This document shows positions 5,367-18,091 of a stretch of DNA of 39,641 bases, piece after piece. The DNA comes from a virus. The notes beneath the pieces were generated by a model. The model did no database searches and was not told the origin of the DNA. It saw only the letters and a program-made list of their open reading frames with translations. The DNA is taken from the IMG/VR virus record IMGVR_UViG_3300025156_000428; one strand, given 5' to 3'. Positions within the stretch are counted from its first letter, which is position 1. Every line of letters begins with the position of its first letter. The position numbers and the translations under genes were made by a program.

Positions 5367-6014
5367 TCACCTCCTTGCTTTTATCACAGTGTATAACATT
5401 CCTGCAATTGACACCACTAAGAGTGTGTATGCAATGTGTTGCGCAGAAGGTGGAAGCATTACTATCAGAGCACTACCACAAATCATTCCAATGATTGATG
5501 GTAGTGTGACATCCTCCTGTCTGATCCAGTATGCGAGGAAGATTCCACCAAAGAACATTGCCCAGAATATGTCTGTGAGAAGGGTTGTGTAGATGGAAGG
5601 AATGGTAGTGGAGAGTTTGGAGATGTTGAGTATGTCAGCGCCTTGCATGAGCTCATCATATTGTGATGTAAAATTCTTTTTCTCCAAATCAACGCTCTTC
5701 TCAGATGAGAAATTAAGCACAGAAGTGCAATTTGCATTGTCACATGCTTTCACATAATATGTTGTGTTTTGTTTGATGAATAGTGCTGTGATTGTATATG
5801 TGCCATTTCCCTGATGAGAATATGCGTATGAAAATGTCTGAGGAGAGGTGCCAATGAAAATGTAACCACTACTGGTGGCGTTGGCAATCTTGATTTTAAT
5901 GACTGATGATGACGGAGTGGAGATTTTTGTGATATTGATTGCCTGCGCTGTCATTATGAGAGATGCAAATGCAAGAAAAATGCAAACTCCTTTCCACCAT
6001 CTTCTTCTCCACAT
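5367..6014 (-). CDS. Virion membrane protein (signal peptide, Ig/FN3-like ectodomain, 3 C-terminal TMs), 215 aa
   Basis: Hydrophobicity pattern, multiple sequons, YYVKACD beta-strand. Confidence 0.7.
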   Translation of the reverse strand: MWRRRWWKGVCIFLAFASLIMTAQAINITKISTPSSSVIKIKIANATSSGYIFIGTSPQTFSYAYSHQGNGTYTITALFIKQNTTYYVKACDNANCTSVLNFSSEKSVDLEKKNFTSQYDELMQGADILNISKLSTTIPSIYTTLLTDIFWAMFFGGIFLAYWIRQEDVTLPSIIGMICGSALIVMLPPSAQHIAYTLLVVSIAGMLYTVIKARR

Positions 6015-6400: not shown

Positions 6401-9400
6401 TCACACTCCCACCTCCTTCTCCCTCTTGCTCATGTATGCCAGAATTCCAAGACAGAGTGCAATGATGATTATGCTCATGTTTGGTAGCCATCCGATATAT
6501 GCGAAAATGAGTGCAAAGATTGGAATGACAATGTATCCAAACTTCACCGTTATGAATGAGAACAATGCAGTAAGGAACATTAGCAGGGCAACTGCAATCC
6601 ATACACAATATTGTTGGTCAATTCCGATGTCAAGCCACCATTGAATTGTGATTATCCTGTTCCTTGCTACCGTGCCAAATTTGGAATGATAGGCACTGAA
6701 TCCCCACAGATACTCTTCTCCTGCTTTGTATGGCACTATGTAATGAGTTGAGATGTTTGACTGATTCGTGAAATTCTGCATGTAGAGGAGTGTTGTTGAG
6801 TTGTAAACATAGAAGGTGAGATTTTGTGTTTGATTCAGCAAATCATTGTAAACGAGGGAGAGATTGAGCTCATCATCTTCCTTCTCGTATGAGAGGTTGA
6901 ATTTCACATAGTCTTCTGACTTCAGCGTTTCTGTGCCAGCTCCTGTGATGATAATGCGGTAATAGTCTGATTTTGGATAGATGCGCATTGTTTCATTGAT
7001 TCCATTTCCTTGCACCTTCACCTCATACTCCACATTTTCCATCATTACCATTGTGCAGGCTCCTCGTGAGTCTGTGGTGCAATTGATTGTTTGATTCTCA
7101 TAATAGATTGCGCTCTCATTTCTCAGTCCAAATAAGGAGAAGAGCCAGTCCCAGCTCCCTGTGGTTGTTGAGAGAGGAGTTGCTGTGATTTGCACATTTG
7201 TGTATGGATTGCCAAAGACATTGACAACTTGGAACTCAACTTGGTGTGGTGGATATGAGATACCAACACCTTCTCCGCCTGCTGCTTCTGCTGAAAATGG
7301 AGTGAGATATGCTGTATAGTTTTTGCTCTCTAAGACGGCAACATAATCAAGTGAGCTGTAATAACCATCAGCACTCACCTCAACTTTATGGATGCCATAG
7401 TCAACTGTGAATGTCACACTGCCATTTTCTGTCTCAGCCATTCTGTTATCATCCAATACCACCTTAAAATCAGTGATTGTTGCATGTGTTGATGCATCTT
7501 TCGCCTTTACTGTGAGTGTGAGGATTGGATACAAAAGTATGTAGACATATTCAACCTCTGTTGGATCAACTGTGACTGTGAGTGGATCACATGGTTTGTA
7601 TCCCTCCTTTGAGGCATTGAGTGTGAATGTTGTTGTCAGATATCGTTCATAGTCAATGTGATATTCTGTATGATTGCTCATATTTCCTCCTTCAAGCACC
7701 TTAATTTTTCCATTGATATAATCAATCTCATAATCAGTTCCACGAATGTATGGAGTTTCATCACTCAGGTTTGTAACTCTCTCAGTGTTTGCTGCAATGC
7801 CATTATGTGAGAGCAGAACCCATGTGTCATACTCGGAGGAGTTGAAAGTTTCGTTGATCACATTCTCAGTGTCCATACTTTCATTGTCAAGTAACAGCTC
7901 AAAGTATCCATGAGCATTTGTTTGGAGTGTTGTATTCCATCCTGTCTCACTTTCTATGAATATGGTTGCATTTGACACATTCTGGAAGGTTGGAAATGAT
8001 TGCACCAATCCAACAATCGCTGGTGAATTGTTGAGTGTTGGTATCAGGAACAAATCTGTTCTGTAATATCCTGTGATGATTGGTGTGAATGTGAAATTGT
8101 TATGCACAAAACCTTCCTTTGATGCATTTACTCTGATTGGTTCGTCTGCTTCATAACCTCCAAACTCATATTCAGCAGTTGTTGAGTTTGTCAGTCCTTC
8201 ATTTGAGGTGCCTGTTGTTGGCTGCTCTACTTTCACATATGTCTCTGGGAGAATTGTCATATTCCTTGCATTATAGCTCACTCCACCGACTTTCACCTCC
8301 TCTGCGACAACAGCAGTATCGTATGCTTCTTCCCATTCAAATCCTGTGTCTTTCTCAGTGATTTTGAGAACTGCATAATAGACTCCCTCACTGAGAGATG
8401 AGGTCTCAACTTCTTCTGTGTGTTGTTGAGATTTGATTGTCCACTCCTTCAGAATGTTTCCATAGATGTCCATTATTACTCCTTTGTAAATGAGATCAGC
8501 ACTCATGTCTGATATGTTTGATGTCACTCTCATAATCTCTCCTTTTGCATAATTCTCCTTGTCAAATGTGATTGTGCCTTGTGTTCCAATTTCAGCAGTC
8601 ACAAAGTCATAAAAGAAATAATCTCTTGTCAGCACTTCATCATCTCGTTTCAGCTCTGCGACATACAATCCATATGCATCATTTCGTGGATCATCACTGA
8701 AGAATGTTTCTGAGATGTTAATTGCATAAATTCCCCAATATGGATCAATTGAGTCCTCAACCACAACCTTTCCTGTGCTGAGATGCTTCACAAGAATTTT
8801 GTTTGCTGGTGTATCAATCCATCCTCCACTTACATAGAGAATGTTCATATGAGATGAGTTTTTGGTATAACCATCTTTATCAATAACACCACTTCCTGCT
8901 GGAGAGTCCCAGTTTCTCACAACTTTCCAGTCATATGGGATGACATCAATGATATGTGCTTTGTAGTTTGTGGCAGCTGCAAAGTATGATGTGCTGCTGT
9001 GAATCCAATCACCTGTTGCTTTATATTCAATTTTAATCTTGTATATCTTTCCTGTCTTTTGACAGATCTCTCCTTTATATGTTCCATTGAGATACCATGC
9101 AATAGAATTTCCACTTTTCACTATTTCAATTCTTCCAAACTCGTTCTTTGGCAAATCTTTATAACAAGTGCCACTACCTTCTATAAATAACCAACATCGT
9201 ATATAGTTTGGTGTGTATCCACTTCTCTCAAGATGAACAAATGACCAGTAATTAGAGGGCATTCCATTCCTTCTTTCCACCTCCACTTCTCCAGAAGAAT
9301 GGCCAGTCAGATAAAGCGTGTGAATATCTCCTCTTCGTGTAGTAACGCCATGACCAGCATAATATTGAAATGTGCAAACCCAATCACCAAGCCCATCATG

Positions 9401-9505
9401 AAATTTATCAACGAACCACTCCTTTTCCTCATCAGCAGATGTGATATGTGAAAAAAGAAGAAAAGATAATACAACTATCACAGCTACAACTATCTTATTC
9501 ACCAC
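6401..9505 (-). CDS. Large virion glycoprotein/adhesin (VP4-like of spindle-shaped viruses), 1034 aa
   Basis: Signal peptide, serial beta-sandwich-like repeats, very many NxS/T sequons, three C-terminal TM helices; position in the structural module. Confidence 0.75.
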   Translation of the reverse strand: MVNKIVVAVIVVLSFLLFSHITSADEEKEWFVDKFHDGLGDWVCTFQYYAGHGVTTRRGDIHTLYLTGHSSGEVEVERRNGMPSNYWSFVHLERSGYTPNYIRCWLFIEGSGTCYKDLPKNEFGRIEIVKSGNSIAWYLNGTYKGEICQKTGKIYKIKIEYKATGDWIHSSTSYFAAATNYKAHIIDVIPYDWKVVRNWDSPAGSGVIDKDGYTKNSSHMNILYVSGGWIDTPANKILVKHLSTGKVVVEDSIDPYWGIYAINISETFFSDDPRNDAYGLYVAELKRDDEVLTRDYFFYDFVTAEIGTQGTITFDKENYAKGEIMRVTSNISDMSADLIYKGVIMDIYGNILKEWTIKSQQHTEEVETSSLSEGVYYAVLKITEKDTGFEWEEAYDTAVVAEEVKVGGVSYNARNMTILPETYVKVEQPTTGTSNEGLTNSTTAEYEFGGYEADEPIRVNASKEGFVHNNFTFTPIITGYYRTDLFLIPTLNNSPAIVGLVQSFPTFQNVSNATIFIESETGWNTTLQTNAHGYFELLLDNESMDTENVINETFNSSEYDTWVLLSHNGIAANTERVTNLSDETPYIRGTDYEIDYINGKIKVLEGGNMSNHTEYHIDYERYLTTTFTLNASKEGYKPCDPLTVTVDPTEVEYVYILLYPILTLTVKAKDASTHATITDFKVVLDDNRMAETENGSVTFTVDYGIHKVEVSADGYYSSLDYVAVLESKNYTAYLTPFSAEAAGGEGVGISYPPHQVEFQVVNVFGNPYTNVQITATPLSTTTGSWDWLFSLFGLRNESAIYYENQTINCTTDSRGACTMVMMENVEYEVKVQGNGINETMRIYPKSDYYRIIITGAGTETLKSEDYVKFNLSYEKEDDELNLSLVYNDLLNQTQNLTFYVYNSTTLLYMQNFTNQSNISTHYIVPYKAGEEYLWGFSAYHSKFGTVARNRIITIQWWLDIGIDQQYCVWIAVALLMFLTALFSFITVKFGYIVIPIFALIFAYIGWLPNMSIIIIALCLGILAYMSKREKEVGV

Positions 9506-9807
9506 TCTTCCTCACCTCCTTCTTCCTGATATGTGTATTTGTGCTTCTTCACAATGTATTTGAACAACCACACAAACAGCAGTATGATGAGGATAAGTGG
9601 AAGTTGGAAGAAAACATTCACCAAATTTGGAACTACTGAGAGTGCTTGTGCAAATGGTGATGTTTCGTCAATGCCAATGTTTGTCAGTGGTGGTAGGATT
9701 CCACACATTATTGAGCCCAAGAGAAAGAAGTTGATGATTGCAATAACAAGGGAAATCATTACAGCAAATACAGCAGCTCCAATTCCTTCTCCTTCATCAT
9801 CAATCAT
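9499..9807 (-). CDS. Two-TM capsid-like minor structural protein, 102 aa
   Basis: Hydrophobic helix-loop-helix architecture like the MCP. Confidence 0.65.
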   Translation of the reverse strand: MIDDEGEGIGAAVFAVMISLVIAIINFFLLGSIMCGILPPLTNIGIDETSPFAQALSVVPNLVNVFFQLPLILIILLFVWLFKYIVKKHKYTYQEEGGEEEW

Positions 9808-10076
9808 GTTACCTCACCACTCCTCTTTTCAATTGCCCTTTTGATGAGCCAGACAAGCAAGGCAAGAAAGCCAAAAAAGGGAAATGCATACCAAGCGTTG
9901 AAAAGCCAGTTCATCACTTGCATCTGGGAAGGTGTCCATGAGGTTGTGTCTGAAATCAATGGTATGGCATTTTTGATGTCCTGCACAACAGGAGAGAGGA
10001 AAATATAGGCAAATGCAAGCATTACCACAAGCACAGCAAATACGGCAATTTCCCCTGCCTGTCCTTTGTTGTTCAT
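9804..10076 (-). CDS. Two-TM capsid-like minor structural protein with class III-like signal (MNNKG/QAGE), 90 aa
   Basis: KG-Q followed by a hydrophobic helix; second TM near the C-terminus. Confidence 0.7.
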   Translation of the reverse strand: MNNKGQAGEIAVFAVLVVMLAFAYIFLSPVVQDIKNAIPLISDTTSWTPSQMQVMNWLFNAWYAFPFFGFLALLVWLIKRAIEKRSGEVT

Positions 10077-10309
10077 TTTCTCCTCCTTGCAAGCTCCTTT
10101 ACATTTTTTATTTCTTCTATTTCTTCATTTTCCTTTTTCTCTTGTTCATCTTCCTCAACAATGCCATATATGGACTGATACATGAGAGCAAGTGCAAAGT
10201 TTAGCGCTTGTCTTTCCATCTCACTTACAGTTGCACTCTCTGCCAGATTTTGTAAGAGAAAGAAATACCCTATTGCAATATCCCTTTCTGGGAGTTGTGC
10301 TTTCTTCAT
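10073..10309 (-). CDS. Hypothetical protein, 78 aa, acidic/basic coiled C-terminus
   Basis: Translationally coupled to both neighbours. Confidence 0.7.
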   Translation of the reverse strand: MKKAQLPERDIAIGYFFLLQNLAESATVSEMERQALNFALALMYQSIYGIVEEDEQEKKENEEIEEIKNVKELARRRK

Positions 10310-12414
10310 TTTCTCCTCCCAAAGGTTTTGATGAGTTGAGTAGGAGTTGAGATTGGTGTGACACGCAGGAATTTGTCTGCTTCTTCCATTGCACTTGTTT
10401 TTCTGAAAGCAAACTCCTTTCTCTTTCTCCTTCTTTTCTGTGTTTGTATTGTCTCTGATGGAAGAAGGAAGAATGTTGGACTTATGCTTTTTCCAGTGAC
10501 TCCTCCTATTTTGGCAACAGCTCCTGAAGGTGTCACCATACCTCTTGGCATTTGTGGAAGAATTGATGATGGTGATGTAGATGGTGTAAAGACATGAGTT
10601 GGGAATGATGGAGCTGACTTCCCTGTGGTTGCAGAGGGAGAGGTTGGAGCTATGGAAGCTGTGGCTCTTACAACACTTTTACTTATTCCTTTGCTTACAC
10701 TTTTACTCATTAGTCCTGAGCTTTTCACACCAACTGAAAAGGAGGTGAGAGGGCTTTTTATTGATGATGACACTGTGTATAGAGAGGGTGATTTCAACAA
10801 AGACAGAGATGGTGATATTGCAACTGATCTTCCTGCAACACCAAAGGAGGATTTCATTAATTTACTCACATTTACACCTTCAAATGCTCCAAGTTCAATT
10901 TTCACTCCTTTCTGTCTTTGTGCCTGTCTCCACATTCTTCTTGCTTCTTTTGCAATATCTCCTCCCCAACTCTCAATCCATCTCTCCAGTCTGAATTCCA
11001 ACTCTCTCGCTCTTCCATATTTGCCAAGCATTCTCAACCTCTCTACTGTTGCCTTTCCTGCAAAGAAATAATCATAGATGTCCTTCACTCTTCCTGCATG
11101 TGCTGGTGCTATGAATCCCTTTACCTCCTTAAATTCAACGGGTTTTGCTCTCAACTCCACTGCTCCACTGAGCTTCCTCAGTGCTTGCTCAGAAAGTGTT
11201 GTTGTTCTGATACCTTCTTTTGTTTTGATGAGTTTGCCTGTTTTGAATCCATATGCCAAGAAGCCTCCTTCTCGCGGTAAGATTCCTCCTTTTACTGAGG
11301 TTTCGCCAAAACCAATTGGATGGATGTCAAACAGTTTTTCACCTGTTCTTCTCACAATGATGCTCTCTCCTTCCATTGTTACCACTTGTCTGCCTGCTCT
11401 TTTATTTATTGCCTCAACCATTTTTCTTGCAAATTTAGCAGGATTTCTCACTTGCACATCTATGTCACGAGGTGTGCGTGGGAGTGCTTTCACACCAATC
11501 TCTCTCCCTGCAGCTTCCTGCATCACACTGCCATACAATCTTGCTTTTGCTCTCTTCAGTTCTTTGATCACAACCTCACTAGTGCCTCTGGGAAGTTCGT
11601 GCCCCTTTTCTACAACACCTCTGATCACAGTCCCAAGCTCACGAGGTTTCACCTTTACGCCTTTAATGATTTGTTGTGAGCTGATTCCCCATTCCATCTT
11701 TCCCATTTCTGTTGGTGCTTTTCTCTGCATGTATTCAAGAGCGATTGATCGCTCAAAAGGTGTCTGTGGCACATATGCCTCTTCACTCAAAATCTCGGCT
11801 CTAATCTTTGGTTTGCCGAGTGAAATTGGTTTGGTTATGCTTGGTTTGCCAGCACTCACGAGAGGTTTGAATGTTGCCTCACCATGCAATCTCTTTATCT
11901 CAATCCCAAGTGCTCCAACCCTTCCCTTCGGAAATTCTGCTGTTGTAATTTTTGGTCTGACAGGTAACTTGCCATAGGCATAAGGAACAAGAAGTGATGT
12001 TGCAGTCTCAGCAGCAAATTCATATGGACGTCTTCTCACATACTGTGATATCTCACCAATTTCTCTTTTCAGTCCTGAAGGCGAGGCAACTCCCTTAAAT
12101 CCCATTCTCAGCATTGGTATGCCTGTTAATGCCAATGGAGTTCTTACAACACCACTTATAACTCCTCTCTTCACTTGTTCTGTTGGAGCCAAAGAAGTTG
12201 AAGGAGCAACTGTTCTAATTATTGGTCTTGCTATTGCAGTTTCATATCCTCTTTCAAGTCTTTCACTGAGTTTCCATGCAAATCCTGAGATGTATTGTAA
12301 TGATTTGAAAATCCTCTCTGGTGTTGGCACCTGAATTCTTCCTGTGAAATGCCAGACAGGCACACCTTCTCTTCTCAGCTCCCTCCTGATGTCTTCAATC
12401 ATCATACTCACCAA
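10306..12414 (-). CDS. Large basic protein with central AbiEii/MenT-like nucleotidyltransferase signature, 702 aa
   Basis: LYGS(295-296)-x20-DID(317-319), later LSEQALRKLSGA and RVKDIYD(443-448); Ser/Pro-rich C-terminal third. The ORF is solid; the function is an inference. Confidence 0.55.
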   Translation of the reverse strand: MVSMMIEDIRRELRREGVPVWHFTGRIQVPTPERIFKSLQYISGFAWKLSERLERGYETAIARPIIRTVAPSTSLAPTEQVKRGVISGVVRTPLALTGIPMLRMGFKGVASPSGLKREIGEISQYVRRRPYEFAAETATSLLVPYAYGKLPVRPKITTAEFPKGRVGALGIEIKRLHGEATFKPLVSAGKPSITKPISLGKPKIRAEILSEEAYVPQTPFERSIALEYMQRKAPTEMGKMEWGISSQQIIKGVKVKPRELGTVIRGVVEKGHELPRGTSEVVIKELKRAKARLYGSVMQEAAGREIGVKALPRTPRDIDVQVRNPAKFARKMVEAINKRAGRQVVTMEGESIIVRRTGEKLFDIHPIGFGETSVKGGILPREGGFLAYGFKTGKLIKTKEGIRTTTLSEQALRKLSGAVELRAKPVEFKEVKGFIAPAHAGRVKDIYDYFFAGKATVERLRMLGKYGRARELEFRLERWIESWGGDIAKEARRMWRQAQRQKGVKIELGAFEGVNVSKLMKSSFGVAGRSVAISPSLSLLKSPSLYTVSSSIKSPLTSFSVGVKSSGLMSKSVSKGISKSVVRATASIAPTSPSATTGKSAPSFPTHVFTPSTSPSSILPQMPRGMVTPSGAVAKIGGVTGKSISPTFFLLPSETIQTQKRRRKRKEFAFRKTSAMEEADKFLRVTPISTPTQLIKTFGRRK

Positions 12415-12437: not shown

Positions 12438-12454
12438 TATATAAATAGCCTTTC
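12438..12454 (-). promoter_or_regulatory. BRE-TATA promoter for the structural operon
   Basis: Minus strand GAAAGGCTATTTATATA about 25-40 nt upstream of the 702-aa gene. Confidence 0.65.
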
Positions 12455-12472
12455 ATCATAACATGTTCCACC

Positions 12473-13153
12473 TCAGACATCAAACTCCGCTCTCTCATCT
12501 CTCCTTCCCTTTGTGAGAAACTGCTCCAGATTTTCAATTGCTTCTTCCAGATATTGTTCTCTCATTTGCAGATATTGACTGTAAACATCATTAGGAATGC
12601 GCAAGTTGTAGTAATCTTCAAACACTTTTTTCACTACCATTTTCCCACTTGGAAGCAAATAGGAGGTATAACCAACTGCAACCCTGTTATCCTTTGGCAA
12701 TCTCATCACTTTTATCCTGTAAAATTCATAACCTCTGATTGCTTTCAGCAAATTTTCTGGATTTGGTGTTGTGATGAGAAGTGCCTTAATTGCCAGTCCC
12801 ACCACATCAAACAAATTCTGCAAATACTCTGTGAGCTGTCTGCTTCTGAAGAAGAGGTATTTTGAGCCGTGGACACCTGCATCATCCCAACAAATCACTT
12901 GCTTCTTCTCCTTTCTTGTTTTGATTGCTGCAATGAGATCATTGAGAGTGAAGAAAACATTGCTCAGAACTTTGTCCCAATCACGATAAAAGTCATACAT
13001 CACAAGCAGTGAATACATAGTCTTTCCACTTCTCTGCATACCGTAGATGATTCCTCCGATCATATCAGGACGACTTGCTATGATTCTGGAAAAAGCAAAC
13101 ACATATTTTTCATTTGAAAGAAGTTTCCATTTCTCAAATGGATTCTCACTCAT
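12473..13153 (-). CDS. P-loop ATPase (morphogenesis/genome-packaging type of spindle-shaped viruses), 226 aa
   Basis: Walker A GMQRSGKT, Walker B VICWDD; lies in the structural module. Confidence 0.8.
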   Translation of the reverse strand: MSENPFEKWKLLSNEKYVFAFSRIIASRPDMIGGIIYGMQRSGKTMYSLLVMYDFYRDWDKVLSNVFFTLNDLIAAIKTRKEKKQVICWDDAGVHGSKYLFFRSRQLTEYLQNLFDVVGLAIKALLITTPNPENLLKAIRGYEFYRIKVMRLPKDNRVAVGYTSYLLPSGKMVVKKVFEDYYNLRIPNDVYSQYLQMREQYLEEAIENLEQFLTKGRRDERAEFDV

Positions 13154-17782: not shown

Positions 17783-18091
17783 TTACCTCCTCCTGCCACC
17801 AAAAGCACCGAGCATGTGCGCCATGATTATCCCTGCGATTATCGCAACGACGACCACAACTATCAACGGAAATGTGCTGTTCATTATGTTCACAGCACTG
17901 TTCATCGCAGTGTTAAAGGGACTGTCACTTGAAAGAGAGGTGGCATCATAGATTGTTGATGCTATGTAGACTCCTATGACACAGACAACTACTGTTGCTA
18001 TGATTGCACTGGCAAGAGAGACAATATCAGAAACTCCTCTCTTCTCTCTAAGCTTTCTCCATATGGAGACGAGCTTTTCCCTCATTTTCAC
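17783..18091 (-). CDS. Major capsid protein of spindle-shaped virus type (two hydrophobic helices, cleavable basic leader)
   Basis: Basic leader ending KRG/VSDIV, two long hydrophobic helices, NST sequon, basic C-tail GGRRR; own promoter and T-rich terminator. Confidence 0.75.
   Translation of the reverse strand: MKMREKLVSIWRKLREKRGVSDIVSLASAIIATVVVCVIGVYIASTIYDATSLSSDSPFNTAMNSAVNIMNSTFPLIVVVVVAIIAGIIMAHMLGAFGGRRR

Follow-up and report, generated by a model that had tools for sequence, protein, structure and literature searches.

A gene on the minus strand of the IMG/VR virus record IMGVR_UViG_3300025156_000428 (39,641 nucleotides; this whole stretch is hereafter called the window) was found to carry, in an exchangeable cassette, a domain for which a two-lobed fold of the nucleotidyltransferase (NTase) type, within the pol-beta superfamily, is predicted at high confidence. 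The open reading frame (ORF) lies at positions 10306–12414 and specifies 702 aa when counted from the TTG at 12414; the virus itself is spindle-shaped and Itzamnaviridae-like, with ANME-1 archaea as its hosts. The NTase, together with the Ser/Pro-rich tail that follows it, forms a cassette between conserved protein ends, and on repeated occasions an unrelated domain (domain X) has taken its place or been joined to it. We favour, at a probability of about one-half, an interpretation in which the gene product, modular and strongly basic, belongs to the morphogenetic block, the NTase would modify RNA and the NTase or X cargo would serve an accessory role in host manipulation or counter-defence.

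A first-pass annotation of this DNA, made from the sequence alone, had proposed that residues ~290–450 carry the motif set of the AbiEii/MenT NTases, and each of these motifs was located there on the minus-strand ORF (residue 1 is the one encoded by the TTG at 12414). Motif I, LYGS at residues 293–296 (G295, S296; 11527–11538), stands at the end of strand beta-1, whilst in motif II, RTPRDIDV at 313–320 (11455–11478), R313 lies four residues ahead of D317-x-D319. A third carboxylate, D363, is found with H365 on a beta-strand in KLFDIH (360–365; 11320–11337). These are followed by the motif III helix, LSEQALRKLSGA, at 407–418 (Q410, R413, K414; 11161–11196) and by motif IV, GRVKDIYDY at 441–449 (11068–11094), which includes the +DxxD pentad K444-D445-x-x-D448. 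The marks described for DUF1814/AbiEii proteins are hG[GS], an additional Arg in motif II, which also stands at an unusually long distance from motif I, a C-terminal Lys motif KLxAaxxR and the +DxxD pentad (PMC3985639); in AbiEii itself, motif II reads R63...D67xD69 (PMC3985639).

An exhaustive HMMER search with residues 245–525 as the query returned 88 cluster representatives of 176–2876 aa (most of them 400–2900 aa), which sit on archaeal-virus-like contigs and, in full-length members, hold the NTase domain in mid-protein. Conservation was counted in 42 aligned homologues taken from these representatives, spanning 20–90 % identity. D317, D319, Q410 and K444 were invariant, and G295, S296, R313, D363, H365, R413, K414, R442, D445 and D448 were conserved in ≥ 90 % of the sequences, such that the GS, DxD and KD residues named beforehand are indeed retained down to 20 % identity. 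The first-pass annotation had also allowed that the motifs might be a product of chance, given that 20 residues separate GS from DxD in this protein. That concern can be set aside, as the motif residues are conserved in the 42 homologues. The canonical spacing between motifs I and II is 9–13 residues, and AbiEii itself has 15 (PMC3985639); the 20 residues seen here likewise exceed the canonical range, at a length that differs from that of AbiEii. A pattern scan of IMG/VR found a single locus. In one distant homologue (P0037; L001:10001–13552) we observed an in-frame insertion of ~130–190 residues between NTase motifs III and IV; it holds an HNH-like 'LQFHHIV', NUMOD3 motifs occur in neighbouring genes on the L001 contig and on L042, and the insertion may be of the homing-endonuclease type.

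The fold assignment rests on an AlphaFold2 model of the domain, built with the homologue alignment (predicted local distance difference test, pLDDT, 90.3; predicted template modelling score, pTM, 0.85). Its elements follow the order alpha-beta-alpha-beta-alpha-beta, in which GS follows the first strand, the second strand bears DxD and D363 falls on one further along; in model numbering, E48–50 is followed by G51 and S52 and then by H52–61, whilst D317/D319 lie on E74–78 and D363 on E116–122. In a Foldseek comparison with the PDB the E-values were weak (none below 0.01), yet all leading matches were pol-beta NTases; on a second look the first 21 matches were all NTases, and MenT3 was aligned over 173–179 residues, covering both lobes. 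A shape search of the ESM Atlas returned a phage poly(A) polymerase (PAP)-like NTase, with a template modelling (TM) score of 0.78 over 150 residues (normalized by the matched model). A cluster labelled AbiEii was also matched, over 187 residues at TM 0.50/0.50; by ESM features, the domain led to Poly_A_pol_cat clusters (0.95). The NTase fold expected from the motifs is thus present in the predicted structure, both by the quality of the model and by the identity of its leading structural matches. With its leading helices, the two-lobed domain occupies residues ~219–504 (10903–11760), and one NTase domain only is modelled in the protein.

To place the domain within the superfamily we aligned the viral NTase profile, using hhalign, with an alignment that we built from 21 genuine AbiEii sequences of archaea. 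The four motifs fell into register over 200 columns, with a score that was not significant (P 0.12). K444-D445-x-x-D448 was aligned to the R-D-x-x-D of AbiEii, and the Lys of K414-L-S-G-A (conserved in ≥ 90 %) to the AbiEii Lys, with the trailing Arg at +8 rather than +7 and unconserved. The gathering score of PF08843 was not reached by the protein, the domain or any of the 42 members (best E 0.056, for one member), a profile search of the PDB returned only low-complexity noise and tblastn against a phage collection gave no match. As the hhalign score is not significant, we treat the domain as a new family of the pol-beta superfamily with DUF1814-type active-site motifs and a PAP-like N-lobe, and not as a Pfam-defined AbiEii member.

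Whether homologues at this locus swap domains had been named beforehand as a check, and near-isogenic viruses do carry X in place of the NTase, within the limit of two cargo modules. In the initial search with the protein, some matches spanned no more than 20–27 % of the query. One of the NTase-less proteins, P0030 (665 aa), is encoded at the identical locus, on contigs whose genes agree with those of the window in order and in size. It has only residues 1–142 and the final ~24 residues in common with the window protein, and its first 140 residues are 97 % identical; P0038 and P0040 likewise have only the two protein ends in common with the window protein. Compared by blastn, the contigs L037 and L038 are 92–95 % identical to the window over > 20 kb, with a sharp break at window positions 11984..10383 (residues ~144–677). 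Here, the ~1.6 kb window cassette has no DNA homology to the matching 1.5 kb of L037/L038, and the flanks are about 94.6 % identical. The blastn breakpoints delimit an exchangeable cassette (residues ~144–677; 10384–11983) made up of a beta-sheet, the NTase, a Ser/Pro-rich region and a basic helix. Upstream of it lies the N-anchor (residues 1–143; 11986–12414), which is kept in all three architectures described below and is 97 % identical to that of P0030, an NTase-less allele; downstream is a conserved tail of ~24 residues (10309–10380) that is common to NTase-less alleles.

The segment that replaces the cassette encodes the ~270-residue domain X, followed by an Arg/Lys-rich region. Domain X is homologous to an insertion in relatives of 1045–1117 aa that carry X and NTase in tandem (P0009, P0014 and others). 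We therefore distinguish architecture A, with NTase only (the window protein and that of Methanophagales virus PBV082), architecture B, with X plus NTase, and architecture C, with X only. In a tree of the N-anchor the three types are interleaved, and well-supported branches force at least 3–4 changes per type. The parts of the window protein differ in their nearest relatives: for the N-anchor this is a protein of type C (97 %), and for the NTase it is P0003 (90 %), whose N-anchor is only 62 % identical. More broadly, the NTase is 77–90 % identical to those of P0022, P0004 and P0003, with 59–62 % for the N-terminal part of the same proteins; judged by such comparisons, no other part of the protein is as well conserved as the NTase. 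In more distant viruses, X-only proteins hold the same pre-capsid position.

Domain X itself (L037:10433–11260, corresponding to P0030 residues 145–420; also in P0009, P0014, P0016, P0021, P0022 and P0024) has an enzyme-like set of invariant polar residues (T38, R40, H70, S92, K95, Y98, E200, E214 and R230 in alignment A4), with the local patterns VWHA, S.TKG.YV.P and [LV][EQ]VEA. By eye, these resemble the H-Y-E / [QE]xE signature of ADP-ribosyltransferases (ARTs), and ESM features gave sub-threshold leads to ART-PolyVal and Tox-ART-HYD1 (0.79–0.80). Pfam gave no match to domain X even at E 10, nor did a profile search of the PDB.

The first-pass annotation had further described a basic flank and a disordered Ser/Pro-rich tail, and both were recovered. 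Every segment of the protein is basic, with a net charge of +64 for the whole, and residues 507–652 (10459–10896) consist of 41 % Ser/Thr/Pro and are disordered in the predicted model; a region of this Ser/Pro type after the NTase is also present in distant homologues. Ahead of the NTase are three long beta-strands (residues 152–199; 11818–11961; pLDDT about 90), and the protein ends with a basic helix (KRRRKRKEF) and the conserved tail (together 10309–10458). The database form of the protein is 698 aa long and starts at 12402. An archaeal TATA-box-like element, TTTATATA, lies on the minus strand at 12438–12445, in the 58-bp gap between the upstream ATPase gene and the NTase gene, and is the sole copy in the window. 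Its position makes an ATG at 12405 or 12402 a likelier start than the TTG at 12414, and one of these two is likely the true start. A promoter of its own, as proposed at first, is hence plausible for this gene; its description as the first gene of a virion operon holds only in part, given that the ATPase gene upstream (12473–13153) is also morphogenetic. An N-terminal Pro-rich extension of ~90–100 residues, seen in PBV082-like homologues (alignment A1), is not present in the window protein.

The plus strand across 10306–12414 is full of stops. A 299-aa antisense ORF at 11078–11977 (+) was considered as a gene and rejected, since its length in low-GC homologues is 217, 124 and 104 aa and the minus-strand frame has deep protein homology. 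In a haloarchaeal locus the antisense ORF reaches 571 aa, a length that we attribute to an assumed high GC content, and the ORF is probably spurious.

How might such a protein work? We infer that the NTase domain is an active Mg-dependent enzyme. By analogy with MenT toxins and viral PAPs, it would move nucleoside monophosphates from nucleoside triphosphates onto RNA 3' ends, of host tRNA or mRNA, in a template-free manner; RNA 3' ends are proposed as the substrate because of the likeness to MenT, CCA-adding enzymes and PAP. The conserved ends would link the protein to the virion or to the machinery of assembly. Its cargo, NTase or X, would then take an accessory role in host manipulation or counter-defence, and might be delivered together with the genome. 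The most far-reaching form of this proposal, which we put forward as tentative and consider clearly less probable than the general one, is that spindle-shaped viruses (Itzamnaviridae, Thaspiviridae and methanogen or haloarchaeal proviruses) package a modular carrier and deliver it along with the genome, with an exchangeable NTase/X cargo that would modify host RNA or components of defence. The cargo of such a packaged carrier may be a MenT/PAP-like RNA NTase, domain X, which is perhaps ADP-ribosyltransferase-like, or both.

A number of observations weigh against the interpretation that we favour. Near-isogenic viruses do without the NTase, which is therefore dispensable for particle making. 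Spindle-shaped viruses are typically chronic and non-lytic (PMC8491892), which fits a growth-arresting toxin of the MenT type poorly. No immunity gene was seen to co-vary with the NTase, the 78-aa gene downstream not tracking it, and a search with the N-anchor alone gave no fourth architecture; the idea of a wide repertoire of cargo domains was thus rejected in favour of two modules only, NTase and X. At the level of the family, sequence searches of Pfam, PHROGs, PADLOC and the PDB with the protein and the domain gave no match, nor did Pfam with the 42 family members at E ≤ 0.001, and under relaxed settings the best Pfam matches came from single members (E 0.02–0.07). Moreover, the hhalign score was reached by 7/200 column shuffles, and a reversed control was equally high over 12 columns. 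As known spindle viruses are chronic and near-isogenic viruses dispense with the NTase, we disfavour a simple lethal toxin; a modulating role, or a role in counter-defence that is selected by some hosts, fits better.

Several other explanations have to be weighed against an exchangeable cargo in a morphogenetic-block protein. The most serious of these, possible and yet distinctly less probable, is an enzyme of intracellular morphogenesis or expression that is never delivered, in which the NTase tails viral transcripts or nucleotidylates a component of assembly or extrusion and the ends dock to the ATPase or capsid machinery. This would agree with the Poly_A_pol_cat clusters indicated by ESM features, and with the position of the gene directly after a morphogenesis-type ATPase and its translational link to the next gene. 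The existence of near-isogenic viruses without the NTase argues against an essential step in assembly or expression, and the comparison with viral PAPs is weakened by the tandem NTase domains of the giant-virus enzymes. The DUF1814-specific motifs point to the MenT/AbiEii lineage. An improbable alternative is that the protein is structural or condenses the genome, with the NTase an inactive, exapted scaffold, its motifs relics, and the basic and Ser/Pro-rich or Arg-rich regions binding DNA. The charge of every segment, the Arg/Lys-rich region that stands in NTase-less alleles instead and the adjoining capsid-like genes would suit such a role. Inactive relics normally lose their catalytic residues; in this family each of them (G, S, D, D, D, K, K, D, D) is either invariant or conserved in ≥ 90 % down to 20 % identity, and the domain that would be a relic is the most conserved part of the protein.

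Least probable of all, to the point that we regard it as very unlikely, is a classical toxin–antitoxin or addiction pair, in which an NTase toxin and a 78-aa antitoxin would stabilize a provirus or exclude rivals. The domain does have the DUF1814 motif set, relatives are found as integrated proviruses and the gene for the 78-aa protein (10073–10309, minus strand) is translationally coupled, its start overlapping the stop of the NTase gene. This small protein is acidic, not hydrophobic and not of the membrane type. The first-pass annotation had seen in it a possible partner or immunity protein, an idea that does not survive comparison: the protein is 97 % identical in a virus without the NTase and its gene is conserved beside X-only genes, so that its presence is independent of the NTase. 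Its gene thus fails to track the NTase, and the idea of an immunity gene dedicated to the NTase was rejected. Moreover, Pfam and PHROG scans revealed no AbiEi/MenA-like gene among the neighbours, and the NTase is embedded in proteins of 600–2900 aa, in contrast to the stand-alone toxin of ~250–290 aa exemplified by archaeal AbiEii. A complex prediction of the N-anchor and C-tail with the 78-aa protein scored 0.01, which says nothing either way.

With regard to the wider setting, the window corresponds to an entire contig of 39,641 bp. Nearly all of its genes are on the minus strand, with a morphogenetic block below ~13 kb and genes of replication and nucleotide metabolism at ~18–39 kb (RFC-like clamp loader, primase, family B polymerase, NrdD and XPD-like helicase). 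The NTase gene is preceded by a 226-aa P-loop ATPase (phrog_5484; 12473–13153), which is probably the morphogenesis ATPase of spindle viruses, and is followed by the small acidic protein, two capsid-protein-like hairpin proteins with two hydrophobic helices each (90 aa at 9804–10076, with synteny in relatives, and 102 aa at 9499–9807) and a 1034-aa putative adhesin with CarboxypepD_reg/Ig-like repeats (6401–9505), all on the minus strand. This order of ATPase, NTase gene, small genes and ~1000-aa repeat protein is kept in Methanophagales virus PBV082, whose hypothetical protein is the closest named relative of the window protein (66 % identity), as well as in a relative with a 31 %-identical protein, on a Halobacteriales contig and in an integrated provirus adjoining an integrase. 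PBV082 represents the type of Pletoitzamnavirus, a lemon-shaped virus with a 48.9-kb genome that infects ANME-1 archaea (PMC9894754), and the morphogenetic module of spindle-shaped viruses has been described as an ATPase, two-helix major capsid proteins (MCPs) and an adhesin (bioRxiv 10.1101/2021.07.29.453957). The window holds three small proteins with two hydrophobic helices, all on the minus strand (17783–18091, 9804–10076 and 9499–9807), any of which could be a capsid protein of the His1/SSV1 type; in distant relatives, it is the two encoded just downstream of the NTase gene that are kept. For itzamnaviruses, two MCPs have been reported in the literature.

Members of the NTase family were found in metagenome-assembled genomes (MAGs) of Methanosarcinales, Methanoculleus, Methanoregula, Halobacteriales and Woesearchaeota. 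A few (L005, L009 and P0057) lie on contigs of 1.6–3.7 kb in bacterial MAGs ('bacterium', Wenzhouxiangella and Anaerovoracaceae), a placement that probably reflects binning errors rather than bacterial hosts. One relative (L044:1–2898) is integrated in a 177-kb contig, where its neighbours are an integrase of the phage type and an ArdC-N / MPTase-PolyVal gene. The virus group thus includes members that are able to exist as proviruses, with anti-restriction domains of the polyvalent-protein type elsewhere. A second cassette difference from the 92–95 % identical relatives was seen at window 5689–5975 (against L037:16325–18540), where a 215-aa membrane protein of the window (5367–6014) matches the position of an 858-aa DUF2341 protein in L037; this is probably a swap of a host-recognition module.

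Almost nothing is known of host takeover by spindle-shaped archaeal viruses, nearly all of whose proteins are without annotation. Through the present assignment, a large gene of conserved position beside capsid-like genes acquires an identity as an enzyme, and a deeply divergent new branch of MenT/AbiEii-like NTases is defined to which the profile libraries now in use are blind, whilst its exchangeable cassette is a signature of a function under conflict-driven turnover. In the literature found on the spindle-virus gene block, the MCP, ATPase and adhesin are described, and we encountered no mention of a nucleotidyltransferase or of its cassette behaviour. The fold and chemistry are already known; neither this family nor its setting in viruses was mentioned in that literature.

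Of the known systems, the DUF1814 toxins (AbiEii, MenT1–4/TglT and JHP933; PF08843) share with the viral domain the four motifs in the same order, the Arg before DxD and the +DxxD element. The motif I–II spacing is above canonical in both, at 20 residues in the viral domain and 15 in AbiEii. The viral domain differs in an extra beta-hairpin between motifs III and IV and in being part of larger proteins, where the archaeal AbiEii controls stand alone at ~250–290 aa. Furthermore, the loci of these controls have a paired upstream gene, whereas no AbiEi/MenA-type gene was found among the neighbours here by Pfam/PHROG, and DUF1814 genes reside on a bacterial chromosome or plasmid, in contrast to an archaeal virus in this case. 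The giant-virus PAPs (the Mimivirus/Megavirus polyadenylate synthase, 4wse/4p37; PF19244) and the phage PAP-like NTases are viral, template-independent RNA 3'-end enzymes. The viral domain is likened to them by the TM score of 0.78 and the ESM features (0.95), and is set apart by its single modelled NTase domain as against a tandem, by the failure to match PF19244 (best E 0.069, in 1/42 members) and by a C-lobe, bearing motifs III and IV, that is more like that of DUF1814 than that of PAP.

The architecture as a whole recalls the polymorphic and polyvalent virion proteins of phages (MuF–toxin fusions), in which conserved ends flank an exchangeable enzymatic middle and the genes lie in the structural block. 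Conserved ends, an exchangeable middle, repeated exchange among close relatives and a location in the structural block are all features of the gene described here. It departs from them in that neither MuF nor another known packaging domain was found by Pfam/PHROG, in that there are two cargo modules with no co-varying immunity gene, and in that packaging is putative only. If a packaged carrier is indeed what the gene encodes, it would be the first archaeal-virus counterpart of the phage polyvalent/MuF-toxin proteins, and an unrecognized hallmark gene linking virus families. In Foldseek searches of BFVD, the NTase model matched two large proteins of spindle-shaped archaeal viruses: the 1125-aa 'IgA FC receptor' protein of a Nitrosopumilus spindle-shaped virus (NSV; A0A514K2U2; E 8.8e-6, probability 1.0, a match at the level of structure only and with a low TM of 0.24) and A0A5P9U643, an unnamed protein of 1041 aa (E 3.3e-7, probability 1.0). 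These model-based matches suggest that the gene is common to Itzamnaviridae and Thaspiviridae. For NSV1, an earlier paper reported no relationship between its proteins, pPolB excepted, and the proteins of other viruses (PMC8491892). As NSV1 is cultivated and the NTase domain compact, the hypothesis can be tested directly.

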